Shown piece by piece: positions 11,201 to 55,727 of a stretch of DNA of 64,000 bases. The notes beneath the pieces were generated by a model, which saw only the letters and a list, made by a program, of their open reading frames with translations, did not search any database and was not told the origin of the DNA. Position 1 is the first letter of the stretch. Each line of letters begins with the position of its first letter. A program made the translations under genes and the position numbers. Origin of the DNA: Phyllosticta citribraziliensis (lineage: Eukaryota); the NCBI RefSeq assembly GCF_038025025.1, contig NW_027117348.1, positions 1,240,001 through 1,304,000 of the forward strand. The letters run 5' to 3'.

Positions 11201-12777
11201 CCGGAAGTACTGGACAAGGTGCTGGCTTCAAAAGAGCTGAGGCCAGGATTGCCCAGCGAGGCGCTGGTCATCTGGGTCGGAATGGCCGTAACAATAGTGC
11301 TGCCATTGAACGTAGTCGTGTAAGAGGCTTCTGGAGAGCTGAGGCCAGAACTACTCAGCGAGGCGCCGGTTGGCAGAGGTGGAAGAACAACCACAGTCGT
11401 GCTCCCATTGACAACAACCGTAGACGAGATTTCAGAGGGAACAAAGCTGAAAGGGCTCGACGAGGTGCTGGCAGTCTCAGGCGGAACGGCCGTTACGAAT
11501 GTGCTGCCGTTGACAACAGCCGTAGACGAGATGCCACTGGAGATGAAGCCAAAAGAGCTCGACGAGGCGCTGGACATCCAAGGCGGAAAAGCTGGCAGGG
11601 TCGTGCTGCTGCTGGTAGTGGCCATAGATGACAAATTGAAGGAGCTCAGACCAGAAGTGCTCAGCCAAGCACTGGAGCTCAGAGGCGGGATACCTGTCAC
11701 GAGCGTGCTGCCATTGACGACGGTGGTAAAAGGAACCTCTAGTGAGCCGGGACCGGGCGTGCTTGAAGTGGCGCTGACCGTCGAAGGCGGGGGAGTGGTG
11801 AAAAGAGAGCTGCCGCTGACCGTAGTCTTTGATTGAACATTGGATGAGCCGAGACCAGACGTGATTGAGGAGGCACCTGTTGACGAAGGTGAAAGACTGG
11901 TGATCGAAGCGCTGCCACTGGCCGTAGTCATTGACCAGACGTCTGATGATCCAAGACCGGACGTGGCTGACGAGGCACTGGCCGTTGGAAGCGGGAGAAT
12001 GGTGACCACAGCGCTACCACTCACCGTAGTCGTCGAAGTGACACCTGACTCGGAGTAGGAGGAGGCTTGGAGGCCACCCGAAGAGCTCAAAGGCGGGAGG
12101 AAGGTGACAGCAAAGCTGGTGAGGACCGCGGTGCCATTGACCGTTGCCGTAGACGTAACCACCGACTCAAAGGAAGAGACGTAGGCCGAGCTGCTCCATG
12201 TGCTTGGGCTGGTAACGTTGCTCGTCGTCGACAGTGTGCCCGGGAGAAACGAAGAGTCAGAAGGCAAGGAGGTACCGGAAGTGAGCCAGGTAGAGTAGCC
12301 GGGGGTCGGAAGCGACGAGAAACCAGGCGTCAAGGGCCAAGGCGTGTGCACTGGGACCTCAGGTGTAGACGGAGAAGCAGTGGTGAAGGAGACACTGGTC
12401 AGATCACCGCTTGGCTTCGGAAGCACCAAAGTACTGGATGTAGAGGTACCCGTGGTTTGCACACACGGAGCAGGCAGAGTGATAAAGCTCGTCTTGACGA
12501 GGGTGAGAGTCGTGATACTGACGCTGTCACCCAACAAGCCTGTGCTGCTGGCAAAGGGCGAAAGACCGTCGGCAGTGAGGAAACCAGAAGAAGAGAGAGT
12601 AGAGGACCAGGTAGACGGGAGAGCGACGTTCGAAGCCTCCCAGATCGTACGCGTGTAGTGCGCGCCCGAGGTGTCGATGCCATGATCTGAGAGAAAACCG
12701 GTGGTGAAAGCAGGGAAAACCAGGATGTTCAGAGCCATGACAGCCAAGAGGAGCTGCCAAAGCACTGGGGGTGCCAT
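5258..12777 (-). CDS. Giant secreted Ser/Thr-rich modular protein (~2,408 aa, 7 exons) with a central DHxY(D/E) domain and three C-terminal Cys-rich tandem units
   Basis: ATG at 12777 with signal peptide MAPPVLWQLLLAVMALNILVFPA. Introns 7179-7226, 6866-6916, 6450-6503, 6139-6187, 5597-5641 and 5280-5325 give a 7,227-nt in-frame CDS ending NYCLCKS-TGA at 5258. Confidence 0.85.
10830..12200 (-). repeat. Coding tandem repeats of ~32-33 aa (approx. SGLSSxxxSSTxxVNGSTxVTxxPP) forming a mucin-like stalk
   Basis: Recurrent VNGST/NGSA and IPPQT motifs in the translation. Each NGS is an N-glycosylation sequon. Confidence 0.8.
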
Positions 12778-13254
12778 GGTTGGCAATGAGGCTCAATGAG
12801 CCAGGGCAATTGAGTGTGAGAAGGTGTGCAAGCAAGCAGAAGTAAGGTGTGGGGAGGTTGTGTAGAGGTTGTGGAAGCAAGCAAGCAAGCGAGCGAAGGT
12901 GGAGTATAAAAAGGGTAGAGGTCAAGAGAGCGCCCGAAGCGAAGGCGGGTGGTGGTTTAGAGGGCACGGGCCTCGATCAGATGCCGCTTAGGGTGCAGAA
13001 AAGCGCCTGAATTAACACTTCGGTGTGTATATTCGAAGTGAGCGGGCGTGGTGTCCGGAAGCTCGGACCCCTTTTTCCCGGTGTTGACCATCGGGTGCAA
13101 CTTGACCTTGGAACCACCACCTCCTCCATCAACCAGCTACTCATTTGAGAAAAGGACCCTCACCTTGATGCCTTCAGATTCATCGTCCTGCAGCCGTCAT
13201 TCAGAGAAATCTCTCCTTCTGGTATTGCGATTGCGTCTGGGAGCATTCGTTGAC

Positions 13255-13412: not shown

Positions 13413-13591
13413 CATTGCTCTCGACACCAAACTCTTCTCGAAAGGCCAGTATATACGTCGCCTTCACGAGACGGCCCTGGATATACACACTGCGACCTGC
13501 AAGTCCTTCCTAGATCATGAAGTATCCCGTAACTTACCAAAAAAGGAGTATACACTCGAAAATACCGCTCTCCATCGAAGCCAGCTCGAAA

Positions 13592-14579
13592 ATGGAGAAT
13601 CCGAACAACCCGTTCCAATGGCCGAGCTGCACCAGTTACTGGCAAGAAGTCGAGACGGCTGGTGTCTCGTAAGTGCCACATCCCAGGAAATGGTCTATGG
13701 CCCGTACTGACAGCTTCGTACAGGAGCGGGGAGCAAAACTTCGTTACCATTTTGGTCGGCCCAAAGCTGAAGCCCTTCGTCGTCCACGCCAACGTCATTG
13801 GCGCCAAATCGCCCTTTTTCAAGACAGCCTTCGAGAGCGGCTTCAAAGAAGGCGCCATGCAGGTCATGACGCTCGCCGACACGGAAGAGGCAGTGTTCCG
13901 CGTCGTCATGGAGTGGGTCTATGACCATACATCTCTGCCGACGGCCTACTGGGCCGAGACGGACAACTGGGAGGAATTCTCCGCGGGCAGGCAAGAACTG
14001 GAGTGGGACGCTCTGATGGTCGAGAACTACATCTTCGCCCAGACGTATATGTTCAAGGAGTTGGCTGCAAGTGTATGCGGCGACTTTGTTTGGCGCCTGT
14101 GGGAGATAGACTGCGAGGACCCGCGGGAGCCGCAATTTCCGTTTCCAACAACGCACACGGTCGAAAGGCTGTTCGGCGGCGTCCCGGAGAGCTCGAAGCT
14201 CTGTGAAGAGTTCGCGTTGGCGTTCCTCTTGCGCCTGCATGAAGGTACCCTAGCGTCCGGTCAGCAAAGCCTCAAAGACGTCCCTCCGACCTTCGCCAAA
14301 ACTCTCCTGGTCATGCTCGCCAGTACAAGAGTTGGCATGCCTTTTCCTTGCTCTCCGGCGGTCAATGTCCCCAGACTGGTGGAAATAGCGTTCCAGACTG
14401 AGGAAGAGGAAGAGGACGACCACACTTTACAGGAGATCCAACCCGAAATCTTTGGAGTCAAGCTGGAGGAAGCATCTCGGGCAACGGAGAGCAAGAAGGA
14501 CGCCAAGATCCAAGTTTTGACTCGTGAGAACGACAGGCTGAAGAGGGAGATTGAGGAGCTCAAGAAGCGACTTGCCTGA
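13592..14579 (+). CDS. BTB/POZ-domain protein (dispersed copy, BTB-1) with C-terminal coiled coil
   Basis: ATG 13592, phase-2 intron 13669-13723, then VTILVGPKLKPFVVHANVIGAKSPFFKTAFESGFKEGAMQVMTLADTEEAVFRVVMEWVY (fungal BTB consensus). C-terminus LTRENDRLKREIEELKKRLA. Confidence 0.88.
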
Positions 14580-37323: not shown

Positions 37324-38072
37324 CTATATTTCTGGAGAAGGAGCAGGTGTGACGTCCGAAACGCCTTCGGAAGAGCTTGAACTCGCACACATCTGACTTT
37401 CAGTGCCATCTCGCCTCTCTGCGAACGCGTTGAAAGCCTGCTCGAAAAATGCAATCGGAAGGTACTGGAAGAGCTTCTTATCGGCATCGCTGGCACAGTC
37501 GCGGCGCCAGTACGCTGCAAACTGGTTGACAAACAGTTGACATAGCCAAGCATCTTCCGGGACGTTGTCGAAGAGCCGGCAAATGGTGGCAATCCTCGGA
37601 CATGACAAGGTTTGGAATCGCTCTTCGAACAGGGAATGGATGCCAGAGGCCAGAAGAGGCATGTCGAAATCCTTGGCGAAGACGTAGGCGCTGCTCATCA
37701 GGAAGTCCCACATGAATTCGACTTCATCTCCCTCCTCGTCTTCCGACATCTGGATCTTCCATCTCTTCTCGCTGTTTGGTCCTGGAAGCTCGCGGGTGTA
37801 CATCCAGTGCATGATGATCTCAAAGACCTCTTCATCGATGTGTTCAAGCTCCATGGCCTTTTCTTTTCCTTCCTTGAAATCGCTGTTGAAAGCAGCTTTC
37901 ATGACAGCCGATTCACAACAGATGATATGCATGTGGATGTAGTAGTTGGTCTGACTTGGGCCAACTATAAGCTTTACGATCTCCTGTTGGGAGCCTCGTC
38001 TGGTAAGTGTCAGCAAACGCATGCCTTGAGCAAACATGGTACTTACGCTGCGTTTGGTAACTGAGATTTCAT
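37324..38072 (-). CDS. BTB/POZ-domain protein (array copy BTB-2)
   Basis: ATG 38072 (CCACCATG), phase-2 intron 38000-38046, then IVKLIVGPSQTNYYIHMHIICCESAVMKAAFNSDFKEG..DEEVFEIIMHWMY and WDFLMSSAYVFA. Confidence 0.88.
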
Positions 38073-39354
38073 GGTGGCGATTGGAAATTCTGAAAGAATC
38101 GCAGCTGTTTTGACCCAATCGTGCCCTCAATTGGTGTTGGCTGGAGAGGCCCAGATACTTGTCAGAAAGGCAAAACACCGTCAGATGAGGCGCTCACCTT
38201 GCGCGACTGACAGGTCGCTGCACTCAAACACCACTCAAAGCCAAGTGAAAAGCTCCATGGACATCTGGGCCGCTTTGCGGCTGCAACAAGAGTAGAGCCT
38301 GAGACTGTGAAGAGAGGTGAAGGAGACTCCAGAGCTGGCGCTGGGATGGTACGGAATCCTTGCAAAGTCAGCGTCAGTTGGAGGTTGAAGGTTGAGGTGG
38401 ACCGTTGGAGTTGTGGCAGCTCGTAGAAGATATTCACCCACAGCGCACCCGCACTAGCCCGAATTGGAACGCCCGGTCAACGATGACACAACATTGTTTC
38501 TCGACATTCACCTACCGCGTAATTTTCCTGCTGGTGATGGATTCCGCAAGCTGTCTTATTCTCCCTTTCCGTCACTGCATGCGCTCCTGCGCCTTTCACC
38601 TCACAAGCTTCCTCTGACCTGGAGATCCAACAGAGAAGTCCTATACCATCACTGAGTTCGCTCTCCCGTGGCATTTACGGCGGAACATCTTTGACGTTGA
38701 CAACGCAACTTTTCCCCGTAATATCTACTTTTGGCTCCCATAGTCCGAACGAGACATTTCAAGAACGCTTTTTGTGACTTCATCTCTCCCATTCGAATCG
38801 TGGCTGCGCTTGCCAAACCCCCCAAAGGTCACAGATCTTGCTATTCAGCTCTTGACATTGAACTATCCAGTGGAAAGAAGCATGCGCTTGCTTGCACGGG
38901 ATGTTGCAACACCTCTTTAGCTACAAAATAGGACAATGAGCAAGGAATCAGTCTTGCAAGTCTGTGCATGATTAATTTTGGGCAGAGCACTATCACTGAC
39001 TTAATTTCTGAGTGGCTGTGAAATTCCTGGCTGAAAAATAGCCACTTGTTTTGGTGTCCTAGTTGGATCGCACTCCGAGCATCCGTTGAAGTAGTCCCGT
39101 GAACAGATCAACCCTTAGCATAAGAAAAAGCACTGGACTGGGGAAGGAAATCCAGTGAGAAGTCAGGAAACCCAAGCAGGGGAAAGAAATATCCAAGGAT
39201 AGTAAAGGAGCCCCCGAATAGGCGCAATCCAGCACAGAAACTTTTGAGGCCGCAGCAGTGGCGTCCTGCCACGTGCAACGAATACTCCCGGAGCGGGGGC
39301 AAACACTCAGCCAAGGAGCATCCCTGTGTCGCTGAATGGGTCCAGATCAAAAAA

Positions 39355-40067
39355 TCATTCAGAAAGCCGGTCTCGGACCTCCGCAAAGCTTGCCATGCTC
39401 ATAAGCGTGAATTCGAGCGGCAACTCCTTGAACAGCTTGAGCTCCGCCTGAGTCGCTCCGGCCGGCCTCCAGTGTTTTGCAAACTGGCGAGCAAACGTCT
39501 TGCGGATGGCGACGTTCTCCGGGGTATTTTTAAAGAGGCGGATGATCGTGGCATGGCTCGGGTATGTAGGGGTTTTGTCGTCGCCAGGCTCAAAGCGGTG
39601 CTGAAATGCACCATGGATGGCGCTGCAAAACTTCCACATGTCGTACATGGCGCCGAAGATGTACGCCTGACTCATCATGTAGTCCCACGTCAACTCGACC
39701 TCGTTTCCTTCTGCGTCGGTCTGACTCTCCTGAGGGCCCCACTTCGGTGGATCTTTTTGTCCCTTGGTCCTGAATGAGGGCACTCGGCCGGTGTACATCC
39801 AGTGCATGACGATCTTGAACACGTCCTCTTCCGTCTCCTACAGAGTGATCTCTCTCTCTTTGCCTTCTTTGAACTCGCTTTTCAGGGCTTTGTCAAAGAC
39901 TGGCGAGTGCTGGCAGACGACGTCCATGTGGATGAGAAACTGTTTCTGGTTTGGACCGACTTTGAACGACACCATCAGCTGTTCACCATCGCTGAGAATT
40001 AGTGTCAGCAAACTGCCTTTTGCAAGGGTGAGGGTGCTTACGAGGCGTCTGGTGGAATCTGCGACAT
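39355..40067 (-). pseudogene. BTB/POZ gene (BTB-3) with a single in-frame TAG at 39838-39840
   Basis: ATG 40067 and a phase-2 intron, then VSFKVGPNQKQFLIH..SEFKEGKEREITL*ETEEDVFKIVMHWMY. The frame continues intact to 39355. Confidence 0.8.
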
Positions 40068-40842
40068 GTTGCTGATGAATGGTCCTTGAACGAATTCGAT
40101 GAAATGTCGGAGATCTTCGAGTGCGCTTGCGAGCTAATCCGTAAGAAGCTTCCAGACCAGAGAAGGTGGTGCCATGCACAGGTCTGCCTTCACCTCCGGA
40201 GTTTCGCTACTTCAGTAGCACTTTTGGAGATGAAGGGAAGGACCAGACCCCATGCAAGGTTAGACGTGTTGAAATGAGGTCGTATTGAGAGAGTCGGCCC
40301 GGGTTGGCGAAGATTGACGAGGAACTGGTGGAAGGCGTCGGCCTCACTGCTGCAATCGAGAGGTGACAGTTTGAGGATGCGCTCAGTCAGGTGAGGACCG
40401 CAAAGCTACCTGAAGCTGCAGTCGAAAGGCCGGCTTGTCGGTCAAGAGATGGGAGAGATGAAACGACTTGGGGGTCTGGACGTTGACGCCAGCTGAAGGG
40501 AGAGTCCCACGGGAGGTTGGCGTCGACGTAGCTGCGTCGAGCAAAGAAAGTAAGGTGAGGTGCGTTGAAAGAGTTCGATGAGTTGATGTTTCGAAATGGA
40601 AATGATGGAGCTGAGGATGGATGCTCCCGCTGCTGTAGGTACAGAGGGGGGCCTGTGCGCCGACTCGCTTCGAGTGCAGTGACGCCACTGGTGATTAAAA
40701 TGGTTCTTTAGTTGGCCGTTTTGACGCGTCCCCTCGCGCACCCTCTTCTAAAAAATACAACAACCATGGTCTGCGCCTTCTTCAAGAAGACGTGGGTGGT
40801 GTCGAGATGTCAAGAAGATTGATGGTTGGTGCGTCCTGGGGG

Positions 40843-41781
40843 CTACCATCCCGATAGATCTCGTGGTGTGCCCGCAAGGATTATTGGAGGCTGCGGTTGT
40901 CTAGAACGGAAAGGTCGAGAGGTTTTGTGCCAAATGCGAAAAAGATAACTCCCCTCCGGTACTCGTTTGTACGGCCTCGGCTTTTTTTCTTTGATGCTGT
41001 GGCCTCTGGAACGGCCATGTAAAAGGGGGAGCCAGTGACGTTGAGCCGAGGCCAGATCTTTTTCCAGCGCGCGCCGACGCTCAATCAAATTGCTGATCAA
41101 CAGCATGACAAAACCATGCGGCAACTCTATTAACCCTCTCTTTTCAATGGGATTTTGGGCAGTTGTTGGATTCCAATGTTCCGCAAATTTCTCGATGAGC
41201 AGTTTGCTGAGCGCGGAATCTTCCGGGACGTTGTCGAACACCCTGAGGATTGTGAATATACTCGGACATTTTGCGGTATTCCAAATTCCGAATCGGGCTT
41301 GGAACAACCGCATGATGTCATCAGCCAGCTTGGGGATGTCGTAGACGACTGAGAATATATAGCAGCTGCTCAGGAGGTAATCCCACCACTTCTCGACCTT
41401 GTTTCCTTGATCGTCTGTTCTGTACGCTTCCAATGGATAACGCTTCAACATTTGTTGCTCCGGGGCATACATCCAGTCCAGAACAACTCTGAAGACGTTT
41501 TCGTCGGTATCTTCAAGGGCCATTCTCTTGGTTTGACTCTCTTTGAAATGCCCATGATTGAATGCTATGTCAAAGAATCGAGAGGACCCACAAATGATGT
41601 CTCGGTGAATGGCAAACTTCTTTTGATTGGGGCCGACTACGAAGGTCAGGAACCTCTGTGAGCACTCACTAAGACAAAAGTTAGAGCTGGCCATTGCCAC
41701 TGATTAGAACACTCACGAAGGTCTGAGTGGGCCCCTCACATAGGGAGATATCGGCGGATTCGGTTTGGGTGGATAAACCAT
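40843..41781 (-). CDS. BTB/POZ-domain protein (BTB-4)
   Basis: ATG 41781, phase-2 intron ~41670-41716, then LTFVVGPNQKKFAIHRDIICGSSRFFDIAFNHGHFKES..DENVFRVVLDWMY and WDYLLSSCYIFS. Confidence 0.88.
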
Positions 41782-42077
41782 CTTGAGTGGATTCTCAAAC
41801 TCCATTGTGGGCTTCAACTTCAACCCCTGATCCTGCATCTTATGATTGTTTGTCGAGGCGAGGAGCGAAATTGGGCGACGAGTGGCTTGAAATATCTATT
41901 GCACGATTTACGCGGTACCGAACCGTCAAAGCAATTTGGTTGATGAGAACCAAGGGGCCAGCTCGCTCCCAAGAGTGTCGTTCACACTTGATTCCCAAAT
42001 GACGGATTACCAAAGTTTGCGATATCCCTGGATTTGAATGTGATTGTCCAACCACGCTACCTTTCCTGGTGGCGTAC

Positions 42078-42914
42078 TTATGGACCGTTCTTCGCAAACA
42101 CGACTGGGAGATTGCTGTCTTGTCGCTTCCGCGGGACGACCCTGCTCTTCGCTCCCTCCCGCATGTTTCTGAGCAGCCTCTCCTGCTGTTGCTTCCACAA
42201 CATGTTCTGATGGCATTTTTGCATTTCCGCAAATGGCTCCGGAAATTGTTTCGTTGGGCGCCTGGCCCAGCGTCTCAAAATCTCTTCAGCAAGTGCCTCG
42301 CAAAGCGGCGAGTCCGTCGGAACCTCTTCGAAAAGCCTGGAAAGCGTGACGCTCTTTGGCAAGCCAGCAAGCGAATTGTAGTTGCGTTCTGAATCGCGCA
42401 TCCGGCTCGTAAATTGCTGCAGGACCGCCTCTGCGAATTCGTTGACCTCGTAGATTGTCGCGAATACGTATGCGCTACTCAGTAGGTAGTCCCAGAGCTC
42501 TTCAGGATTGCTGCCATCTTCGTCGTGCACCATTGTCCAAAGGTAATGGCCCGTAGGTTGCGGCAGAAGCCTTGTGCGTATCCACTTTGCAAAGAGCTCA
42601 AATACTTCAGGGTCGGTATCTTCGAGCGCCAGGACTCCGGTACGTCCTTCTCTCCAGTGGTTTTGGAAAGCAACAGCAAAGAATGGTGATCGTGACGTAA
42701 GGTGACGCATTTCCATTTCGAATTCTTGTTGTTCCGGACCCACGACAATTGTAACTCTGTTGTTCGTCAGCTTGTGATGTGAAGGGAACCCGGAACAATC
42801 GAATTACCGAAAGTCGCAGGCAGTATCAGCCTGAGTCGTCTTCAAGCTCCCTGGGTCTAACGAGATGTGCCCCGGACGGGAGCTTTCTTTACCTGGTCGC
42901 ATCGTGAAGAACAT
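42078..42914 (-). CDS. BTB/POZ-domain protein (BTB-5)
   Basis: Probable ATG 42914, phase-2 intron 42757-42807, then VTIVVGPEQQEF..SPFFAVAFQNHWREG..DPEVFELFAKWI and WDYLLSSAYVFA. Confidence 0.85.
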
Positions 42915-44046
42915 GGAAACGTCTGGGGCTTCAAAAATGGCGAATCATTGTGGTTGATTTGATGGGTTATTGCAAGAGTCTTTGAAGGAAAAGAAACAAT
43001 CCGATAGTTGCTGTGTAGCGCGTTCGCGAGATTAGTCACGCCCTAGGCTGGCGAGCAGCTGTTGAGTTTTGCATTGGGATGTCGACCGTCTCCTTCGCAG
43101 AGCCCCTCAATGCAAAACGCACCACAACCCATCCATGGTACGCTCACCTGAAAAGCCAAGGGCAAAGCAACACAGCTCCCCCAGGATGATGCGATCAATC
43201 GAGCTTCTTGGTAATATAGTAGGGTTTTGGCCAGAAAGGACAATTTCAGCCAGAAGCAGAGGAAAAAAAGCCGCGCGTAAATTGGGCGCAGTGTCGATGG
43301 GGAGTGTAAATGTGGCAAGCCTGCTGTGCACAGCTTTTCCAGTACATCTGCAGATAAAGACCGCTCGGCGAGCTGGATTTGGCTTTGTCACGAGGAGCGG
43401 CTCTGGGCGACCTTTGGGACGCCAAAGCAAAGGGAGAACGGACTGGAAAGCGTCGGGAATTGCAGCGAAGCAGCTACCGCATTCTCTTTCTGGAAGACAC
43501 GCCGGAAGACAGAGGTGACTGTCATGCGCTCACAATCAGCACAATGACAGCACAAAAGCCCAGATCCAAGGCGTGAGTGGCTTCAAGGGAACGAAATGGG
43601 CTTACCCTGAGCCGTGGAAGATTTCTTGGCACCCAGCTATGGGCCGGACTCGAAGAAAGACAATTGCCTGAAGAACGGGTATTGTCCACGTGGAACGCTT
43701 CATGGACGCATGGCTCTTTGAAGATGATGCGACAATCACGTCAGTGGTGGATGGGAGAAGGCGTCAAGTGTTCTGGGCTGCTCCAGCATGTCGTGTTAAG
43801 TTGCCGGTGTTTGGATGATGTTCGGGAAGAGTACAAGCGTGCAAGTCGGTGACCGTGGTCACATACGTGGTCAAGGCGACGGGATGGGCTCAGGACTGTG
43901 CTGGATGGGCTTTGCATTGTTAATGTTCAAGCCAGTTTGGAAGCGCAATCAGCACCGACTCACTCTTCGTCACCTCCATCTCAGTCGCATCCGATTGGTC
44001 CATGGGGCGCCCCGGGCTAATCCTACTTGGGTTAGGGTGTGGCTGC

Positions 44047-44434
44047 GTGCACGGCTCGTAAACTTCCAAAAGCGGTAGTAGTACGACCCAGGCGGTGAGT
44101 CGCAACATGAGCGAGACACCTACCCTATCGCTGCCAGTGCACGGCTCGTAAAAGAGCCAACGAGGAAATGTAGAGTGAGGGAGCATTGTTGCTGCCTTCT
44201 GGTTGCCAGCTTACTAGAATTCCCCGAATCATGGCGCCTTCGCATGATCTCTTCATGGCCCCCAAGCCAAGATGCTGTCCCTGAACTTTTTTCCTAGTAA
44301 CAATGCCCCTCTATGTAGTCATCTCTGCAGTGGCTTATGATTCGTCACTGAAACGCCACGTCGGGCACACCGTGCGTCTCTTGATTTGGTACAGTGAAGG
44401 ATTCGAGGTCGCCTTCCGGTGCACGGCTCGTAAA
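44047..44434 (+). promoter_or_regulatory. Three exact copies of GTGCACGGCTCGTAAA upstream of the ABC transporter (candidate Zn2Cys6 sites)
   Basis: Copies at 44047-44062, 44137-44152 and 44419-44434. Each contains a CGG triplet. The binding-site role is inferred. Confidence 0.6.
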
Positions 44435-44728
44435 AATCCAAAAGCAGTAAGTGTACGACCTGAGGCAGTTCCAGCTAGCTGAATGATGTGTGTGGCTCGG
44501 CAAAGACCGCAAACATATCACTGATGAGGCTTTCGCATCGCGCATGCAATGTCCGACCTTTTCCTTTATAAGTCTTCCCAGCTCGCCTTGCGGTGCGGCC
44601 CAATAGACCTTACATTCAGCGGACGATTCCGGACTAATTCCTAGAGTAAGTTTTGATTCACAAAACTTATCTTGCAGGTCCCAGACTCATCTCTCCAGGG
44701 GAAAAAAAGACAAGCGATTTGCAAACCA

Positions 44729-47700
44729 ATGGCAGAAGACCCAGGCTCCATCGACGGCGCCGCGCCAAAGTCAAATTCCAGCCGACCAGAACGAACACCC
44801 AAGTTTTCCGACTACCTCAGAATCTTCACCTACGCCACAAAATGGGACTTTTGCATGTACTTCGCCGCTTCCCTGGCATCCGTCGGGGCCGGCGTGATGA
44901 TGCCCCTTATGAACGTCGTCTTCGGGCAGCTCGTGGGCGAGTTCACCGACTACTTCAAAGACCCCGAGGCCATGTCCCCTGGCGACCTCGAGCGCATTCT
45001 CAACAAGGCCGCGCTCTACATCATGGCACTCTTTCTCGGCCGCTGGGGGCTCAACGCCATCAACAAGTTCTGCTTTCGAATGATTGGCATCCGGTTGTCG
45101 TCGGCCGTGCGACTGCGGTACTTGCAATCGCTTCTCGCCCAATCCATCCACACTCTCGACGCGCTGCAACCTGGCGCGCCCGCGACCGCCATCACCTCGA
45201 CGGCCAACACGCTACAGCTGGGCGTGTCGGAGCTGCTGGGCACGTTTCTGATGTTCAATGGCACCGTCTGGGCCGCGTTGATCATCGCATTCGTCTGGAG
45301 CTGGGACCTTACGCTCGTGACGTCGTCAGTGATTCTGTACATACTGGCCGTGCTGGCGGTAGTTGTGCCACTGACCGTCAGGGGTCAGGCTGCGATGGCG
45401 AAAGCGGACGGCGAGGCGACAGCCATTGCCAGCGAGGCGCTGGGGGGCATACGGCTTGTCATGGCATGTGGCGCGCAAGGCGGCGTCATCGCCAGGTATA
45501 ACAATTGGGTGCAGGAGGCCCTGGAGCGGGCGCAGAAGATCGCACCGGTCTTGGGAGCTCAGTTCGGTCTAGTGGTATGTTTCTGGCTCATCACTACCAG
45601 TCAGATGATATTTGGGGCTGATGCTTGGAGCAGTTCTTCGGCGTGATCGGAGCATTCGGCCTGTCGTTCTGGTACGGCACGCAGCGGTACATTGCCGGAG
45701 CCATCGACAACGCTGGCGTGGTTATCGTCGTGCTCTTGTCCGTCTTCATGATTCTCACTTCCATGGAGCGCATAGCGACCCCCCTCATAGCCGTCAGTAA
45801 GGCCACCGTTGCTGCTTGTGAGTTGTTTACCGTAATAGATGCCGCCCCGCCTGCGTCTGGTTCCTTGAAGCCGCAGTTTTCCTCTGAAGACCTGGTCTTC
45901 AACGAGGTGACGTTTGAGTATCCCAGTCGGCCTGGTGTCAAGGCTCTGGACGGGTTGAGCTTCCGCATTCGGTCAGGCCAGAACACAGCGCTCGTTGGTC
46001 CGTCGGGCTCAGGGAAGAGCACTATCGTCGGATTGCTGGAACGATGGTATTCTCTGAGAGATCAGCACGCCGTGCCTCAGGTGGATGAGGCTAAGCCGAA
46101 GGAAAAGACGGATGATGAGAAGAGCGAACAGCCTGATGAGGAGCCGAATGCTCCTATCACGCCAACTCTTTCCGGGTCCATTACGGTTGGTGGAGTCAAC
46201 GTGGAGGATCTGGACCCCATCTGGTGGAGAGCGCAGGTTGGGCTAGTTCAGCAAGAGCCCTTCCTCTTCAATGATACCATTTACGGTAACGTTGCGAATG
46301 GTCTCATCGGAACCGAATGGCAAGACGAGCCCGAAGCGCGGAAGCGAGAGCTGGTCCAAGAAGCGTGTCGGGAAGCTTACGCCCATGAGTTCATCAGCCG
46401 CCTCCCAGATGTAAGTCCGAACTCGTTGTTCAAACCCTCTCCTACGACTCCGTCAAAGTGACCAAAGATTCTGACGGTGCATCATTAGGAATACAACACG
46501 CACGTCGGGGACGGTGGCGCGAAGCTGTCAGGCGGCCAAAAGCAGCGTCTCGCCATCGCGAGGAGCATCATCAAAAGACCGCGCATCATCATTCTCGACG
46601 AAGCAACCAGCGCGATAGATGCCAAGAGCGAAAGGATAGTCCAGGCCGCCCTCGACCGAGTTACGCAGAACCGCACGACCATAACCATCGCGCATCGCCT
46701 CTCGACAATCAAGAAGGCCGACAATATTATAGTGCTGCAGAAAGGGAGGGCAGTCGAACAGGGGACACATCGAAGCCTCACTGCCGACCCGTCGGGTGTT
46801 TACAGCTCTTTGGTGCGGGCGCAGTCTTTGCATCTTTTGGCCCAGGATACGTCGGAGACGGAGACAGCAAAAGCGGATTCCGATTCAGACTCGAAAAAGG
46901 CAGCCATCGATTTCAACCAGGATGGAGAGGTGGTCCGTACCAGTGTTGATCAAGAAAAAGCCACTCGTCAGCCCCGAAACCTATTTTCCAGTTTCCCAGA
47001 GCTTCTCCGCAACCAACAGGTGCATTGGCTGCACTATCTTGGCATCCTCTTGGCGACTTTGGGAGTCGGAGCCCAGGCGCCCCTCCAAGCCTTGCTCTTT
47101 GCGAAAGTCCTCGGCGTGTTCCTCATGAACGGAGATGAACTCAAGAGCCAAGCTGATTTCTGGGGCCTGATGTGGTTCGCCCTGGCCGGGGGCGTCGGAA
47201 TTGCGTACTTCTTCGAGGGCTGGCTCAGCATGCGCGTACAGTACTTCGTCAGCGCGGCTTTCAAGCGGCAGTACTTGGCCGACATGCTGCACCAGAAGCT
47301 CACCTTTTTCGACGAGGAAGCCAATTCGCACGGCACACTGAGCTCGCGCATTGCCAGCGACGCGAAGCTGCTGGAGGAGCTGTTCGGGCTCAACACGGCC
47401 ATGTTTCTCTCGGGCGTCTTCACAGCCGTCGGCTGCATCATCATCGCGCTTGTCTTCAACTGGAAGCTTGGCCTGGTCGCCACGTTCATCACCATGCCGA
47501 TCATGCTGACGTCCGGCTTCTACAAGTACAGGTACGAGGTCAAGTTCGACCAGATGAACTCGGCCGTCTTCGACGAGAGTTCGCAGTTCGCCACCGAGGC
47601 CATAGGGGCAATGCGCACCGTCTCTTCCCTGACGATGGAAGCTGTCATCATCGACCGCTACAAGAAGCTCTTGGATGGCCATGTGCGCGCAGCGCAGCGC

Positions 47701-48805
47701 AAGGCCCAGTGGACTTCCGCGTTCTTCGGCTTCGCGGAAAGCGTGACTCTTGGCTGCCAGGCCCTGATTTTCTGGTACGGCGGCAGGTTGCTTGCTCGCG
47801 GCGAGTGCTCGTTCGAGGCCTTCTTCGTCTGTTTCATGGCCATCATCAATGGAGCAGAGGCGGCGGGTCTAATTTTGTCTCTGGCACCCAGTGCCGCACA
47901 GGCCACAGCGGCTGCAAATCGTATCCTCGATGTCCAAGAGTCGGCAGAAAAAGACCGGGGTGGAACATCAGACAGCTGGGCCTTACCCGGATCGGATGGC
48001 GGCGTGAGAATCGAGCTGCGGAACGCCCATTTCAAATACCCCACGCGGGACGTTTTGGTTTTCGAAGACCTGAACCTGACCGTCGAGAAAGGCCAGTACG
48101 CCGCATTTGTCGGGCCATCCGGGTGCGGAAAGACGACCATCATATCCCTCTTGGAGCGGTTCTACGAGCTGGGCCCAGGCCAAGGCACGATTCTCTGCAA
48201 TGGAATCAACATCAACAACCTCAACCTCTACGACTACAGGCGGAATCTTTCACTCGTGTCCCAGGAACCAATTCTGTTCCACGGAACAATGCGCGACAAC
48301 ATCCTTTTCGGGGTAGAAGACCCGAGCTCTGTATCGGACGAGAAGATCCAAGAAGTCTGCCGCAATGTTTTCATCCATGACTTCATCGTCTCCCTGCCCG
48401 AGGGCTACGACACTGACGTGGGGCAGAAGGGCGTGTCCATGTCTGGAGGCCAAAAGCAGCGGATCGCCATTGCGCGCGCTTTGGTCCGGAATCCCAAGAT
48501 TCTTCTACTGGATGAAGCGACATCGGCACTGGATTCCGAGTCCGAGAAAGTCGTGCAGGCGGCATTCGAACGGGCGCGGGCCGGGCGAACCATGATCGCA
48601 GTGGCCCACCGACTCTCGACCATCCAGGACGCCGACGTCATCTTCGTGTTTGATGAGGGGAAGGTGGTTGAAAAGGGTACGCACAAAGAGCTCATCAACA
48701 AGCAGGGCATTTATTGGGAAATGGTAAGTCCTTGTAAACCGATGGTGGCTCTCCGTTTTCTGACAAATGAATCTTTAGTGTCAAAGCCAGGCATTAGATC
48801 AGTGA
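44729..48805 (+). CDS. Full-length ABCB (MDR/P-glycoprotein-type) transporter, 4 exons
   Basis: TMD-NBD-TMD-NBD. Walker A GPSGSGKST and GPSGCGKTT, signatures LSGGQKQR and MSGGQKQR, Walker B ILDEATSA and LLDEATSALD. Introns 45575-45633, 46411-46488, 48724-48778. Confidence 0.95.
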
Positions 48806-49069
48806 ATGGCCTAGGGAGACGGAGGAAGAATCGTTAGCTAGAATTAGACTTTTGGTGAGGAGTTTTCTTACGGAAACAGTTGGCATGGTTCAAAGGCGTC
48901 TCGCATTGGGCACACTCGCTTGAATGCTCCTTGTGACCTCGCTTCGAAGAGACGAGACATTCTCTGTTCAAGGCGACAGGAGCTTGGAAACTCCAAGTCT
49001 TCCTGCATTTGTACTTAACGATGAGGGGTCCCGGAGTTGGAAATCTTTTTCTTCGCCCTCTGGGGTAGC

Positions 49070-51085
49070 TCAAGAGGAATATATGTCAACCATAAACAGC
49101 CCGCCAGATCCCGTGAGGGGCTGCCGTTCCCACCGCACGACCTCTGTCTCCGGCCGCACCTCCGCCGCCTCCTCGACGCACTCCCACTTCCCTGTTGTCG
49201 CGTCTTTTTCCAGGAAACGTAACAGGATACGCTCGCCGCCGTCCTCAAACAGCAACTCGCGGCGCCACAGCCGCTGCCACTGCTCTGTCGGCGTCCCCTC
49301 AAACGCGTTCGCGCGCTCGACGGCGCGATTGCGCAGTGCGACGGCGTGCAGGGCGCGCGTGTTCCATAGGCCGTCCTGGCCTGGGTAGTCCCTCAACAGG
49401 GCAACGGTGTCATCGCGCGTCGGTGGGTCACGGCAAAAGAGCGCGATCATGAGCAGGTTCCAGGCCAGGCTGCATTGCAGCGACAGCGCGCGGGCCGGGT
49501 TGTGCGCGATGTCAGCGGCCGCCCGTAGCGCCATCCGCGCCAGCGACAGGTACTCGCGGTATGCGGGCGTGAGTGCGCTCATGGTCTCGACGGCGATGAA
49601 CTGCGGCGGGTCTTCGAATAGAATGGCGCTAAGGTACTGCATGCGCAGGTGCAGCGCCTTGAGGTAGGCCGGCGAGGAGCCCGAGCGCGTGTCTCCTTCT
49701 TCTTCCCCTTCGGTCATGACGATGCGGTGGAAGAGCGGCATAAAGGCGGCTTCGAGCACTTGGGTGTACTGCCTCGCCGGCTCGCACCAGGCATGGAGCT
49801 TCGGGTTGTCGAAGAGATCTTTATAGAATTTAGACACCTGGATGTCAAAGGGCTCAGCCCTTTGATGTACGGTTTCTGTTGCGGAGCCGGACAAGCCGGA
49901 ATTTTGAATCGCTTCGGCCATTATCATTAGCATGGTGGTACTGTCGCGCCGAGCGGCGGTCAGGCGCTGCTCGAAGTCGTCAAGGCTTGTGAAGGCGGTG
50001 GGGATGTCGCTGGCGGTTGCGGATGGGCGCTGGACCCGGCTGAGGAGGACCATGAAGGACTCCATGGTTTGTTGCTTGTTCCGAAGCCCTTTGGTGAGGT
50101 GTGGGAGCGGCGAGCCATGGCCGAACCTCCCGCGAAGAACAGTGCGGGCCTGTATTGCTAGATTTGTGAAGATGTCTGCCACCGCTGCCAGGAGCGGTCG
50201 CGGATTCGGCGCGAGGTTGGTTATGTGATGGTCTGAATCTCGGTCCGTCAAGACGGCAAGCAAGAGAGCCATTCCATGGTTGACATGGTCCAGGGCAGCC
50301 CTCCTATTGCCTCTGAGTATCTCGAAATACACCGAGAGAACAGAGAGGAAGACAGCATCCTGTACAGAAGCTTGTTGGCTCTGCATTTTCAGGGCGTGGC
50401 AGTAGTGAGCGACGGCATGGAAATAATATGCGTCTTCTCCTTTAGCCTGGGAATTTGGTGCGGAAATTGCGCGAAGAGACTTGTGATTGGATTGTTGATG
50501 CCACTTGCTCAGCGAGCCAATGGCCATTGCCGCATGACGAAGCGTGGCATTACTGCGAGCAACCTGAGGGAGAACAACGGCCCATAAGTCACCGCAGGTT
50601 GCTGCAGTGTTCCAGGATCCCTGAATAAGACCTACGAACTCCTGGAAATAGAACATGCTCGTAGAATCTCGGAAATCTAGGAAATCTGGATTGGGCTGAT
50701 GCTGCAGCCTTGGAGTTGCGACATGTACGGTCTGCTTGGAATCCCAGCAGAGCTGCACAGGACCGGCATGTTTCTTCTTTTTCAGTCCGACAACATACCC
50801 TTCACAATGACGTCGGCTGCTGATGCAGTTACCACAGTGGGGTTTAGCCTCGTCGCATTTGATGTGGCGCTTCTTGCAAGTCACACAGCCTGTTCGAACT
50901 TTTTGGGTGCTCGTACGTGAAGGTTTTGGTATGTCATGCCGGACATGCTGGACTGAATCATTTTGCAACAGAATATTCTTCTCGGGAGATACAGATCTTG
51001 CGGGGTGTCAGCCTTGTTTTTTCATCTTCCCGCTGCGTTGAACTTTGGCTCACTGGAAAGAATTATTAGAAAATGCGTCCCCCAT
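49070..51085 (-). CDS. Zn(II)2Cys6 transcription factor
   Basis: [36 protein letters not shown] and middle-homology-like [11 protein letters not shown]. Probable ATG 51085 with a short 5' intron (~50998-51053). Confidence 0.92.
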
Positions 51086-51750
51086 GCCACCATAATCATC
51101 CGTCGCCTGTGCGATGCAAAAATAGGGTTGGTGAGAGACGTTGTTAGTCCAAGCTTTAAGAAGGCAGGGTCGCAGGAGTAAGTGGATCGATTGACAGTGT
51201 AGGGTGGAGCTGTGGACGAGGCTGTAGAACCGGAAACCACGAATGGGCCTGCCAAGCTGGATAAACCTTAATGCCGATGACGCATGCGGGCGGAACATAG
51301 GTACCCCACCTTCATCAGCCACAGCAGTAAGCACTAATCCTAGTTCACTCTTCGCCACAGTGCGCCACAGTTGCCAGGCTCCACGAGCGCCGGACAACAT
51401 TTCTTCCTTTCATCACAATCTGCCTTGCAAACAGCCCAAAAACGCTGGTGACATTTGACGATTATGTAGATCGGCGCCAGTCAGAGGCATGGAAGTTTGG
51501 GGCAAAATAACGGAAAGTACCTACACACGGCAAGGCAGTTGAGGCAGAGGCATACTGAATTAAGTCTATTTTTGCTGGCACCATGAGAAGAAAGACCAAG
51601 ACCGGGCTGTCCCGTCACTGAAAATCGAGATTCTACCTGGAGACAAGTGAGCAAGCTGTCAATTTCATTGGGGACAAGGCTTCATCAGTACCTGAGAGGA
51701 CCGTTGAAGAGAGCGTCACGGTCGCTCAAGCAGAGAGAGACTGACCAGTC

Positions 51751-52011
51751 CTATCCACCAAGCATCATCACCCTGCCTTTGATGCTGTCCGAGATATGCA
51801 TGCGGAACATCATGTGGCCATCCTTCTGCTCGTTGAAATAGTGCATGATGGCTTTGGAGACCGCCTTGCAGAGGGGGGCGGACTCCAGGACCTCGTCAAA
51901 AAGCCTGCAGAGCGTTGCGTCATCGGGCAAGCAATTTAAATTCGGCAGAGGGGCGATGCAGGGCGAGAAATGGGCTTTGGTGAACGCTTCGTGGAGCTCT
52001 TGGGCGAACTT
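51751..52011 (-). pseudogene. Orphan C-terminal half of a BTB-family gene (BTB-6), paralogous to the 3' half of BTB-7
   Basis: Reads KFAQELHEAFTKAHF..LPDDATLCRLFDEVLESAPLCKAVSKAIMHYF..GHMMFRMHISDSIKGRVMMLGG*, versus BTB-7 EFAAQLHEAFMEAHF..FPAHATLTRLFDDVPEFAPILKSISKGLMTFF..GHTMFHFHLPSSIKGRFMMLGG*. No BTB domain or start codon upstream. Absent from the ORF track. Confidence 0.85.
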
Positions 52012-52263
52012 CTAATATAGGGCGCAACAACGAAAAGCACGCGCACATGAGAGAGAAGCTGGAAGCAAGTTTTCAATAGGGGAAACTATTTTCGCTCAAA
52101 CCAGAAGCAGAGCAGATCGAAACGACCCCAGATCATGACCAGAAGCAGAGTTGGAGCCTGCAGATGAGTAAGCCACTGGCGAATTCGCAGAGGAAAAGTC
52201 TCTCCAAATACCTGAGATGACACTTGAAGAGGAAACTGCCGTAGCAGTTGAAGCAGGGATGCC

Positions 52264-52940
52264 TCATCCTCCAAGCATCATGAATCTGCCCTTGATGCTG
52301 CTGGGCAGATGAAAATGAAACATGGTATGTCCCTGGGGCTCCGCGTCGAAGAAAGTCATCAGACCCTTCGAGATCGACTTGAGGATGGGAGCGAACTCCG
52401 GGACGTCGTCGAAGAGTCGAGTGAGGGTTGCATGAGCAGGGAAACGGGTGAAGACCACCTGGGCGTCTCCGTTGGCGGGGAAATGAGCTTCCATGAACGC
52501 TTCATGAAGCTGGGCGGCGAACTCGTCGATCATGTACATATGGGCAAAAATGTAGGAACGACTGATGATGCTGTCCCAAAGTTTCTCCGCCCTTGAGCCG
52601 TTCTCAGCCGGTGTAGTGATTGCCTGGTATTCGCTGCAGGAGAAGGATGGGAGCTCCTTGGTGCGCATCCAGGTCGTGAAGAGCTCGAAGACGTCCGCGT
52701 CGGTTTCTGGGAGATTCAGAACGCGAGTCTGACCTTCCTTGAAGTGTTCACCGAAGGCGTTGCGGAAGAATTGAGAGTGGGTCGTAAGGGCTTTCTTCTT
52801 GAGAACGAAGATGGTGCGACCGATGGTAACTTCGACGTTCACCCTGGCGATTCATTAGCTGAGCTTGAGAGAAGGCATGTGATTACTGACGGATTATCCC
52901 TCCACATCCAATCAGAGAAGCGGTCTGATTTAGTCGCCAT
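52264..52940 (-). CDS. BTB/POZ-domain protein (BTB-7)
   Basis: ATG 52940, MATKSDRFSDWMWRDNP, phase-2 intron, then VEVTIGRTIFVLKKKALTTHSQFFRNAFGEHFKEGQTRVLNLPETDADVFELFTTWM. Confidence 0.88.
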
Positions 52941-53430
52941 GGTGGTTGATGATCTTGAGTTGATTGTGTTGTTGTTGTGGAGAGGAAGGAGAAGAGGGAC
53001 GTGGGCGCAAGCAGACGTGGATAAATTAGGTGTGCGCCGGTGGCACGACCTTGGCGCAGGCGGCAGCGATATCAGAGCAGGCGCTCGTAGGAAAATTTGT
53101 ACAGGAAGTCACAGGCATAGAATTTTGAGACACGTGATTTGAAAGGGAACATATATACGCGAGAGAAGCAGAGAGTAAGGTGTCTTGAAGGGATCCATTT
53201 TTTCTGGCCAAGACTAGACTGTCCCATTACGGAAGGTTGAATTGTGCCTGGAAAGTTGTGAGCCAAAAGGAAACTTTCCGAGCCTACATGCTCCCAAGAC
53301 TTACCTGTCCTTCCACATGGAATCCGACCTCGTATACGAACCAGAAGAGAAGGAAGTTGACAAGCTTCCGTTCGTTTATTAGGTTCAGGGCCCTGATGGA
53401 GATCCACGCCACACACTGACGATGTAGAAA

Positions 53431-54128
53431 TTATCGGCGCCAGCGACGCCGGGTGCTGGTGATGCGTCCACCAATGGTCGTAATCTTCTGCCTGAGTTCG
53501 CGTGATTGGCGGAACTTGAAGAGAAGAGCACCGTCGTACTCGTCGTTGTATAAAGTGACGATGGCGTTGGCGACGGCTCTGGAGAGCTTGGAGTATTCGG
53601 GAAGCTCAGTCAGGATTGACGAAATGCTTTCGTCGCTCGGGAAGAGGTCGAAGGCTTCGAGCGAGTCTTGGACCTTTGGGAAGAACGCGGCCATGTAGTC
53701 ATTTTTGAGACGGTCCTCGAGTTTGTTGACCTGGTAGAGGTGGGCAAAGGCGTAGACATTGATGAAGTCTTTCATGTTAACCATCTCGAGCCTGGTGCGA
53801 GTCGGGTCAGGGCCAATGAGTGTCGGAAGATTGTCAAAACGCATCCAGTTGGTGAAAATCTCGAACGTCTGGACATCGGTCTCGGGAAGATGGAGTACGC
53901 CAGTGCGCGCCTCCCGAAAGCCGCCATTGAATGCGTTGAGGAAAAACAGCGAGTGCTGCATCAGCAGCGCCCTCTTTATGATGAAGATTGTCTTTCTCTC
54001 TTGAGAACCGACGACAATCGAAGCGTTCACCCTATCGATTTATTAGCTGAGCTCAGGAGAAAATCTGCGCTTACTCACGGACTGTCCCGCCACATCCAAT
54101 CAGAGAAGCGGTCCGAATTGGCTGCCAT
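53431..54128 (-). CDS. BTB/POZ-domain protein (BTB-8)
   Basis: ATG 54128, MAANSDRFSDWMWRDSP, phase-2 intron, then SIVVGSQERKTIFIIKRALLMQHSLFFLNAFNGGFREARTGVLHLPETDVQTFEIFTNWM. Confidence 0.88.
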
Positions 54129-55025
54129 TGCGATGAGTCGTATAGGGGTTGTTGTTTTTGTGGAGGGAAGAGGAGAGGAGGGACGTGGGCGCGAACAGCA
54201 TGGAAAAACAGGTGTGTCGGTGGCACGACCTTGGTGCAGGCGCGCGGGCTTCGCAGAATTAACATTCGACGGTGTTAAAATAGGAAATGTGCTGACCTAC
54301 CCAAACGAGCTAGCCCAAGCTACCTTGACGGCCGCTTTCAACCGAGGCTTGGCCTCTTATTTTCTCTCCTGCATCTATAAGCGCTACTCCCTTGGAAGAG
54401 AGCTGATGAATATACGAAAGCTGCGCAAACGGGGCAAGAGACAGGTCGCCATACTATACACCACATTTTGCTCCGCTCTTGAAGGTCAAAACAACTATTG
54501 CCGGAGGCTCATCCACACGGCCAAGCCGATTGGCAGCTCGAATTGCGTAAGAGAAGCGGGAAAAACAAGGAGACATGGAGGAGCAAATCAAGAAGTGGTT
54601 CATGGAACAAAAGAAATTCTTAGTGGCTACTCTATCCCCGTGAAAGCAGGCGTGGATTTGATTCTGAAAACTCCAGCAGAACGCGTGAAACCAAGGGAAA
54701 GCCAAAGAAAACCAAGACCTACAGAACAGTAAGCTTAGCGGAAACTCTTCAATGGGATTTGCTTTGGAGTTTCACCTGAAGAGCTGGTCGTCACTGGTTT
54801 TGTTGCTCAACCTGCGTCCACTGCGTCCTACCTGCATGATGAGAAGCAAGGAAGCCTGGAAACTTATCATTGGTAATTGAGATCATTTCCAGGACCAGAA
54901 GTAATCAACGCGCCATACCGGCGTTGTATTGTTCGACAACGACCCAGTCCCAAGACATCACGACCTGAGGCAAGGTGGTGGCTACCCAGCCGGAGAAGAA
55001 GTTCGACTGCCCTGCCGGTTCGCGA

Positions 55026-55727
55026 TCAAGCCCTTCGAGAACTTCCTGACCCCATCATAGCGCGGTATTCGAGGATCGCGGGGTGGAGATGCCGCGGAAT
55101 GGTTTGGCCGAGGAGGTCGTGGAAGAACTCGTTATAAGCCCGGGAGATCGCCTGAAGAAGTTTCGCGTTCGGCAGAAGCGCGTCGTGGAGGCGCAAGAGC
55201 AGATCGCCGGAAGGGAAAGCATCGAAGGCCTCAAGACTGTCCTCACAGCGCGGAAAATAGGCGTCCATGAAGATCTTCTGGAGCGCCTCCTCGAAGTCGG
55301 GCATCGTGTGCGTGTAGGCGAATTCGCAAGCCGGGATGAAATGTTCGTCCCAAAAGGCCTGAGCTGCAACGCAGGACCGGCGCCGGATTGCGGAGAAGAC
55401 CGGCAGCTGATTCGTTGCTTTCCAGTCCAAGAATAGTTTGAAGACGGCTGGGGGTGTGTGCGGTAGGTAGATCATGCTGGTGAAGGCCTCTTTGAATGGA
55501 CCACGAACCACTCCCTCGAAGAAGACGGAGAACTTCATGACCTCGTCTCTCTTCTTATGGAATATCTCTTCCTCTGGGCCGACGAAGAACACGACGTGTG
55601 TATCTCCTTGTCTAAAGGATCTGTTAGAAGGGCCAATGTCAAGGTATCAGGCGACTCACTTGTTCGGCTCCACGCCCTCCAACCAATCCCAAATCCTCAA
55701 AGTCACGTAGGTAGAGATGGAAGCCAT
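55026..55727 (-). CDS. BTB/POZ-domain protein (BTB-9)
   Basis: ATG 55727, phase-2 intron ~55612-55659, then VVFFVGPEEEIF..FSVFFEGVVRGPFKEAFTSMIYLPHTPPAVFKLFLDW. Shares DSLEAFDxFPS with BTB-8. Confidence 0.85.

Follow-up and report, generated by a model that had tools for sequence, protein, structure and literature searches.

The window analyzed here, a 64-kb stretch of a contig from Phyllosticta citribraziliensis (NW_027117348.1, positions 1,240,001 to 1,304,000 of the forward strand), contains nine loci of one family of small BTB/POZ proteins, named B1 to B9 below. P. citribraziliensis is a fungus of the Dothideomycetes, order Botryosphaeriales. Four loci (B1 to B4) form a first sub-array at 37.3-42.9 kb, three loci (B6 to B8) and a 3' fragment (B5f) form a second at 51.7-55.7 kb, and B9 is dispersed at 13.6-14.6 kb. 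The loci were delimited using stop-to-stop open reading frames (ORFs), and the whole window was searched in six frames by hmmsearch with profiles built from the window copies and from 77 family members. The search recovered ten ORF pieces corresponding to the nine loci (E values of 5e-80 to 3e-10), and no further match better than an E value of about 1 was found with these profiles in the six frames of the whole window. The membership of the nine loci in one family is therefore far beyond chance, and the tandem array with a ninth copy that had been proposed in an earlier note on this DNA was recovered by both the ORFs and the profile search. The layout given in that note stands for the two minus-strand sub-arrays, whereas B9 lies on the strand opposite to the array. 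No transposons or long repeats were found in the array, where only short coding blocks and a 5' block shared by B6 and B7 link the copies, and none of the array DNA repeats was inverted.

As the earlier note had described, the coding sequence of each of the eight full-length loci begins with a short exon and is then interrupted by a phase-2 intron, which lies directly ahead of the first BTB strand. To place introns, we used contigs from X1 and X3, two sequencing runs of an organism designated A whose contigs are identical to the window; these contigs skip short stretches ending in CT..AC on the plus strand, that is, GT..AG on the minus strand. The phase-2 intron was confirmed by spliced X1 contigs for five loci (B1, B2, B3, B7, and B8). 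In the first sub-array, B1 (37324..38198, minus strand; stop-to-stop ORF 37324-38193) is an intact gene of the predicted BTB/3-box/BACK type with its ATG at 38072 and the phase-2 intron at 38000-38046, and a CT..AC joint in X1 contigs reveals a second intron in its 5' untranslated region (38141-38197). B2 (39355..40067, minus; ORF 39355-40206) has its ATG at 40067 and an intron at 39992-40041, and its ORF contains an in-frame stop, so that the locus is a transcribed pseudogene or a truncated allele. B3 (40843..41805, minus; ORF 40843-41703) is intact, with the ATG at 41805, another in-frame ATG upstream of it, and a phase-2 intron at 41669-41716 seen as the X1 joint 41668/41717. B4 (42078..42914, minus; ORF 42078-42803) is also intact, with the ATG at 42914 and a predicted phase-2 intron at 42757-42807; an X1 contig piece stops at 42756, which is the predicted exon edge.

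In the second sub-array, likewise on the minus strand, B5f (51751..52011, identical to its stop-to-stop ORF, 51751-52011) is an 86-codon 3' remnant without the first half of the BTB domain. The other three loci are intact: B6 (52264..52940; ORF 52264-52851; ATG 52940) with a phase-2 intron at 52844-52890, B7 (53431..54128; ORF 53431-54039; ATG 54128) with a phase-2 intron at 54031-54077 and the X1 joint 54030/54078, a cut whose position may be shifted by one base, and B8 (55026..55727; ORF 55026-55646; ATG 55727) with a phase-2 intron at 55612-55659 and the X1 joint 55611/55660. The dispersed locus B9 (13592..14579, plus strand; ORF 13533-14579) is intact, with its ATG at 13592 and a phase-2 intron at 13669-13723; the introns of B6 and B9 are predictions. 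B9 ends in a charged, heptad-like tail (14340-14576) with weak leucine-zipper-type Pfam matches (E values of 0.015-0.5), which suggests a coiled coil; the array copies have no such tail.

Eight CT..AC joints within the array were found in X1 contigs. X1 and X3 were recorded only as guessed RNA, and since their contigs are spliced, both runs hold RNA. A 4748-nt contig covers B2, B3, and B4 with their spacers, and a 4282-nt contig covers B7 and B8; such contigs cannot distinguish single transcripts from read-through, and their depths are unfit for ranking the genes. Another run, X5, yielded only six small pieces and was not used. An array in which no copy is expressed, the outcome that the earlier note had named as fatal to its proposal, is thus not what the spliced contigs show. 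The spacer that separates B8 from B7 contains two further introns (54249-54300 and 54717-54773, minus strand), of which the latter was seen in both X1 and X3; they may belong to a long 5' untranslated region of B7, to a 3' untranslated region of B8, or to an unannotated transcript. The P. citribraziliensis protein model P0001 is a chimera in which most of B3 is joined to the first 59 codons of B2, ending at the B2 stop. B3 is identical to P0001 where the models overlap, and an X1 contig is unspliced across the supposed junction (window positions 40843-41805 with 39838-40067).

Two of the nine loci are broken, as the earlier note had recognized in speaking of a nonsense allele and a half-gene. 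B2 carries an in-frame TAG at 39840-39838 on the minus strand, beyond which the frame is open. The locus is still transcribed and spliced: an X1 contig is spliced at 39991/40042 and shows no alternative letter at 39840. By contrast, X4, a sequencing run of a relative designated organism B, reads C at 39840 on the plus strand, giving GAG (Glu), and P0013, an intact 220-amino acid relative with 90% identity to B2, also has Glu at the stop position. These observations indicate that the B2 stop is recent and lineage-specific. B5f comprises only the last 86 codons of a gene and matches positions 108-193 of the family profile. In an IQ-TREE phylogeny, it pairs with the full-length 209-amino acid protein P0005 (support 99/91), with B6 as sister to both (97/88), and it is 68% identical to P0005 versus 49% to B6. 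Because its closest relative is full-length, B5f is what is left of a gene that exists in complete form elsewhere.

We next describe the proteins encoded by these loci. With the Pfam BTB profile (PF00651, gathering cutoff 20.5 bits), B1 (31.4 bits), B3 (33.6), B6 (22.2), and B9 (30.7) scored above the cutoff, B7 (20.3) and B4 (18.5) fell just below it, the 5' half of B2 scored 13.6, and no match to this profile was obtained for B8, B5f, or the 3' half of B2. Owing to an insertion in the family, the matches are confined to about positions 12-79 of the 110 in the profile, roughly its first two thirds. Identity of the core regions to that of B3 is 20-41%. An AlphaFold2 model of the B3 core, built from an alignment of 77 family sequences, had a mean predicted local distance difference test score (pLDDT) of 93.2 and a predicted template modeling score (pTM) of 0.89. 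In the model, two strands and two helices come first, followed by a short helix, a third strand, a long helix, the insertion, and six helices; the insertion itself consists of a short helix and a β-hairpin (residues 66-91). A model of full-length B7 showed the same fold (pLDDT 84.2), with low confidence for the exon-1 peptide and the insertion.

Structural searches with the predicted models support the BTB fold (three strands and five helices), as BTB chains dominate the results of both Foldseek and VIA-align. The top Foldseek chains were KBTBD4, SPOP, NPR1, KBTBD2, and KLHL3, among 69 chains with E values of 0.001 or lower. In VIA-align, the best match over the whole model was SPOP (residues 198-363 on model residues 1-199; Z 12.4, root-mean-square deviation 3.3 Å, 165 residues aligned), and the list also included the BTB-BACK part of vaccinia A55 bound to Cul3 (Z 11.1) and the BTB-BACK parts of KBTBD2 and KBTBD4; these superpositions are given as residue ranges, with no residue-level alignment. 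In the models, the six helices that follow the third BTB helix appear to stand in the place of the 3-box/BACK helices. The earlier note had listed a WD-type motif and an RLFxxVPE-like helix as separate elements besides the BTB domain. Instead, both are helices of the predicted BTB/3-box fold; judging from the helix order and the superposition ranges, they would lie in the helix that follows the insertion and in the 3-box-like pair of helices, namely in the first of the two. No second Pfam domain was found in any copy (E ≤ 1) beyond weak, chance-level matches, and no substrate-binding domain was recognized. The family is accordingly modeled as consisting of BTB/3-box/BACK-only proteins.

A feature associated with Cul3 docking is kept in these proteins. 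By sequence, the family profile matches KBTBD4 (5.6e-15) and SPOP (5e-13), and its F-k-E is aligned with M233-E234-E235 of SPOP and with L-K-E of KBTBD4. At this hydrophobic-x-Glu (φ-x-E) position, in the loop or short helix that precedes the third strand, all eight full-length loci have [F/W]-[K/R]-E; the seven aligned window copies all have the Glu, whose conservation in the 77 family members is at least 90%. In the available text of PMC3616122, the hydrophobic residue of φ-x-E is described as the one that buries the most surface against Cul3, a change of the Glu in KLHL3 as abolishing measurable binding, and the BACK part of SPOP as required for full affinity. The predicted fold and the kept motif agree with the proposal of the earlier note that the proteins belong structurally to the Cul3-adaptor type of BTB proteins, and they make Cul3 binding by family members plausible. 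Members outside the Phyllosticta clade mostly end in a conserved C-x-Y-H-x-H ... E-x-x-x-C, possibly a metal site, of which the window copies keep at most an F-H-F-H remnant (B6 and B5f).

The family is large. A search of 1.84 billion cluster representatives with a seven-copy profile gave 11,564 proteins at E ≤ 0.001, the weakest of which will include other BTB classes, 2,299 at E ≤ 1e-10, and 23 at E ≤ 1e-30. Of the 150 best matches, many are proteins of 170-320 amino acids that match the full profile. Some are long and hold two to seven matched stretches (for example, P0032, with seven stretches in 1219 amino acids); these could be genuine multi-BTB proteins or could result from gene models in which tandem genes were merged. 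A word-seeded homologue search, which is biased towards relatives of its seeds, gave 35 proteins, 17 of them named by organism and all annotated as "hypothetical" or "BTB domain-containing"; the 17 named organisms are all Dothideomycetes. Three species in this search had two family matches on one contig, and a protein atlas places B3 among Ascomycota BTB clusters. In the literature searched, supplements aside, nothing was found on the family in Phyllosticta or other Dothideomycetes, nor was a function described for any member, and the text of a review of fungal immunity (PMC10197012) contains neither "ubiquitin" nor BTB/POZ. As far as the available text of PMC10282164 and PMC11412873 goes, fungal BTB/POZ expansions are recorded only as domain or orthogroup counts, and in the latter, one of the expanded families tabulated for a Dothideomycete is a BTB-domain orthogroup.

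Synonymous and non-synonymous differences were counted by the Nei-Gojobori method on codon alignments of the paralogues. The proportion of synonymous differences (pS) was 0.61-0.85 in all 36 pairs, so that synonymous sites are saturated and the Jukes-Cantor distance is undefined or greater than 1.2. This saturation indicates that the low identity among the paralogues reflects their age, and it leaves no meaningful ratio of non-synonymous to synonymous rates between them. Trees constructed with FastTree (138 rows) and IQ-TREE (34 rows) grouped all window copies, along with 16-17 other representatives, in a single well-supported clade. Each of the copies, that is, the eight full-length loci and B5f, pairs with its own representative and none with its neighbor; the support for these pairs in IQ-TREE was 95/68 to 100/100 for eight loci and 90/91 for B3. 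The second sub-array forms one group (98/94), which B4 joins (99/98), and B1 to B3 lie with B9 on the other side. The order in the tree is the physical order (B8-B7-B6-B5f | B4, then B3-B2-B1), as serial tandem duplication predicts.

B7 is 100% identical to P0002 and B8 99.5% to P0003, both of which are P. citribraziliensis proteins; B4 is 93% identical to P0004 and B9 71% to P0006. B8 is 83% identical to P0181 from P. citrichinensis. Another protein of that species, P0182, is a chimera consisting of the end of B7 (95% identity over 75 amino acids), a translated spacer, and the start of B6 (100% over 33 amino acids); since it joins the end of B7 to the start of B6, the two genes adjoin in P. 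citrichinensis as well. In other Phyllosticta assemblies, orthologues are 83-100% identical. One-to-one orthologues across related species, which the earlier note had regarded as contrary to its view, were thus largely found.

Contigs of X4 cover all 30 bins of a 19-kb stretch of the array region and offer a closer comparison, although the 40 differences listed, out of more than 2,100, are a small sample selected by read support. Sixteen of them lie in BTB coding sequence, and eight of these are synonymous and eight non-synonymous. The ratio of non-synonymous to synonymous differences was 1:5 in B7, 1:2 in B3, 3:0 in B4, and 3:1, including the stop, in B2, which together point to overall constraint and not to an excess of replacements. 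Among the paralogues, the inserted hairpin (20%) and the C-terminal helices (22%) are the least conserved parts compared with the first half of the BTB domain (36%); among close orthologues, these two are not the fastest-changing parts. In one X4 contig, 114 other letters stand between 51342 and 53163 in place of B5f and B6, and a second X4 contig covers B6 at about 94% likeness; possible explanations are a presence/absence variant of B5f and B6 or mixed genomes in X4. The stop in B2 and the truncation of B5 are lineage-specific losses, and the birth-and-death process suggested in the earlier note is borne out by the absence of the B2 stop in a relative and by B5f being a remnant of a P0005-like gene.

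B6 and B7 also share a 5' block. The B6 block (52836-53062, minus strand) is 72-90% like that of B7 (54024-54242), a likeness far above that of the coding bodies, although the second exons of the two genes have a saturated pS of 0.71. The blocks, which appear as direct repeats D1, D6, and D7, contain proximal upstream DNA, exon 1, and the intron. A 17-nt motif is confined to 53038-53054 and 54218-54234; the upstream DNA of the other copies lacks it, so that it is not an element common to the family. The likeness of the two blocks could be due either to a 5' gene conversion or to a strongly constrained regulatory and N-terminal module.

Taken together, the cluster is an ordinary, old birth-and-death cluster of a known domain class. 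Our preferred reading, which we regard as on balance probable, is that it represents an old tandem cluster of a large, uncharacterized fungal family of small BTB proteins that dock on Cul3. In the predicted structure of each protein, a short peptide at the N-terminus is followed by a BTB domain that carries the variable hairpin insertion and then by some six more helices, which replace the 3-box and BACK helices of SPOP, KLHL, and KBTBD proteins; there is no other domain. The protein would dock on the N-terminal domain of Cul3 through the conserved hydrophobic-x-Glu loop and the 3-box-like helices and so become a subunit of a Cul3-RING ligase, either as receptor or as modulator; if targets are recognized, the parts involved would be the variable hairpin, the C-terminal helices, or the tails. 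Serial tandem duplication built the cluster well before the divergence of the Phyllosticta species compared here, and its evolution is now one of slow birth and death, with seven copies intact, one recent stop, and one 5'-truncated remnant. Several observations weigh against this reading. Only four of the eight full-length loci reach the Pfam cutoff. The exon-1 peptide is modeled with a pLDDT of only 50-68, so that the N-terminal helix of long-form BTB dimers is not evident. Skp1 chains also score in VIA-align (Z 9.1-9.5), and the fold alone therefore cannot single out Cul3. HMMER aligns the helix after the insertion with the 3-box helix of SPOP and KBTBD4 and not with the fourth BTB helix; this register is off by one hairpin, which leaves the superposition ranges as the sole basis for the helix correspondence. 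Finally, as no substrate-binding domain was recognized, "adaptor" may be the wrong word.

The last of these points, together with the Skp1 scores, would also be expected of BTB-only scaffolds that do not act via Cul3, namely, oligomerization or partner modules, Skp1- or Elongin-C-like connectors, or decoys that titrate Cul3; in one variant, they would be regulators pairing with other BTB proteins or with transcription factors. The match to NPR1, a transcription co-regulator (Z 11.8), the profile matches of BTB-zinc finger proteins such as BCL6 (about 5e-4), and the coiled-coil-like tail of B9 fit this explanation, and the available text of a preprint (10.1101/575910) describes recruitment by BTB heterodimerization. 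It accounts less well for the hydrophobic-x-Glu motif, which is kept in every full-length locus with its Glu in at least 90% of the 77 members, and for the finding that Cul3 adaptors with 3-box/BACK helices make up all of the best full-length matches; we consider it rather unlikely, though to be taken seriously. A further possibility, that the loci are decaying, functionless duplicates transcribed as a by-product of neighboring genes, draws on the two broken loci out of nine, on the continued transcription and splicing of the nonsense copy B2, and on single contigs that cross several genes and spacers. Seven loci, however, keep open frames despite saturated synonymous divergence, introns are removed at a conserved site, orthologues in other Phyllosticta assemblies retain the high identity given above, and the fold is predicted with high confidence, all of which make decay very improbable.

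The earlier note had gone further and read the array as a diversifying, defense-type repertoire of Cul3 adaptors, which may single out proteins of foreign or selfish origin (from viruses, transposons, or competitors) for degradation. The high residue divergence on which it relied is real (20-41% identity), but it reads as age and not as speed: all 36 pairs are saturated, each copy has its own orthologue, the B6-B7 adjacency is kept in P. citrichinensis, and half of the 16 listed X4 coding differences are synonymous, with five to one in B7. The tandem layout, the two broken copies, and the lower conservation of the hairpin and C-terminal helices among paralogues would suit such a bank, as would the uneven divergence of orthologues (83% identity for B8 versus 95% for the 75 amino acids of B7 in P0182); these variable regions, however, are not the most-changing ones between close orthologues. 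Similarly, the X4 contig with other letters in place of B5f and B6 is countered by another X4 contig that covers B6. The array is free of transposons and long repeats, and nothing in the analysis bears on a link to viruses or conflict. Rapid diversification was thus not borne out, and the defense bank, whose prediction of fast turnover meets mostly contrary evidence, found no support; we regard it as improbable.

The array is split by two non-family genes (44650..51168), an ABC transporter gene on the plus strand (about 44.65-48.84 kb) and a Zn2Cys6 factor gene on the minus strand (49070-51168), with the Pfam domains ABC_membrane, ABC_tran, Zn_clus, and Fungal_trans_2. Both genes are covered by spliced X1 and X3 contigs and lie inside the phylogenetic group of B4 and B5-B8. 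A functional link of the pair to the BTB genes is possible; in a variant of the doubtful reading as a counterpart of MATH-BTB banks, which is taken up below, the copies flanking the pair could be KEAP1-like controllers of this stress or efflux module. A secondary-metabolite cluster was considered and dropped, as no core biosynthetic enzyme was found among the 35 largest ORFs scanned; the domains in these ORFs include ankyrin, asparagine synthase, RRM, Coa1, hydrolase, ABC transporter, Zn2Cys6, UbiA, and JmjC. Elsewhere in the window, a 1864-codon open frame (7201-12792, minus strand) is very Ser/Thr-rich, with many loosely repeated units and no Pfam match, and looks like a giant mucin- or adhesin-like wall protein.

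Among known systems, KBTBD4, KBTBD2, KLHL3, KLHL11, KEAP1, and A55 have the BTB and 3-box/BACK helices in common with the window proteins, and KBTBD4 is the best match both by sequence and in Foldseek. Unlike the BTB-BACK-Kelch adaptors, the window proteins have no Kelch propeller and end 0-80 residues after the BACK-like helices. SPOP, whose M233-E235 is aligned to the φ-x-E motif, differs from the fungal copies in several respects: they lack MATH or another substrate-binding domain, their third BTB helix is followed by an additional, variable hairpin of some 25 residues, and they are only 13-16% identical to it. NPR1 aligned over 180 residues (model residues 1-197) and continues into ankyrin repeats and a salicylate-binding domain, which the window proteins do not; its identity of 13-14% suggests a shared fold and not orthology. 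In nematodes, MATH-BTB proteins form many clustered paralogues of Cul3 adaptors, with pseudogenes among them. The same is described for grass MATH-BTB genes in the available text of PMC4091423. The fungal copies differ from these MATH-BTB banks in having no MATH domain, in being old duplicates with an orthologue for each copy, and in showing no non-synonymous excess in the differences found. It is nevertheless conceivable, if doubtful, that the family is the counterpart of the nematode and grass banks without a recognition domain, in which the hairpin and C-terminal helices would form the target-binding face and provide slowly renewed Cul3 specificities, some of them against non-self or selfish proteins.

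Many small fungal BTB proteins are annotated only as "hypothetical" or "BTB domain-containing", and the fungal BTB expansions reported so far are given in the available text of PMC10282164 and PMC11412873 as counts, with no gene structure, fold, array anatomy, or function. The family described here is predicted to have the full architecture for Cul3 docking (BTB, hydrophobic-x-Glu, and 3-box/BACK) without a recognition domain, and it sits in transcribed tandem clusters in which public gene models are mis-joined. The idea of a role in defense is tempered by the finding that the divergence of the copies is a sign of age and not of speed. The predicted architecture, the clustering, and the mis-joined models together provide a concrete, testable entry to the biology of Cul3 in fungi.

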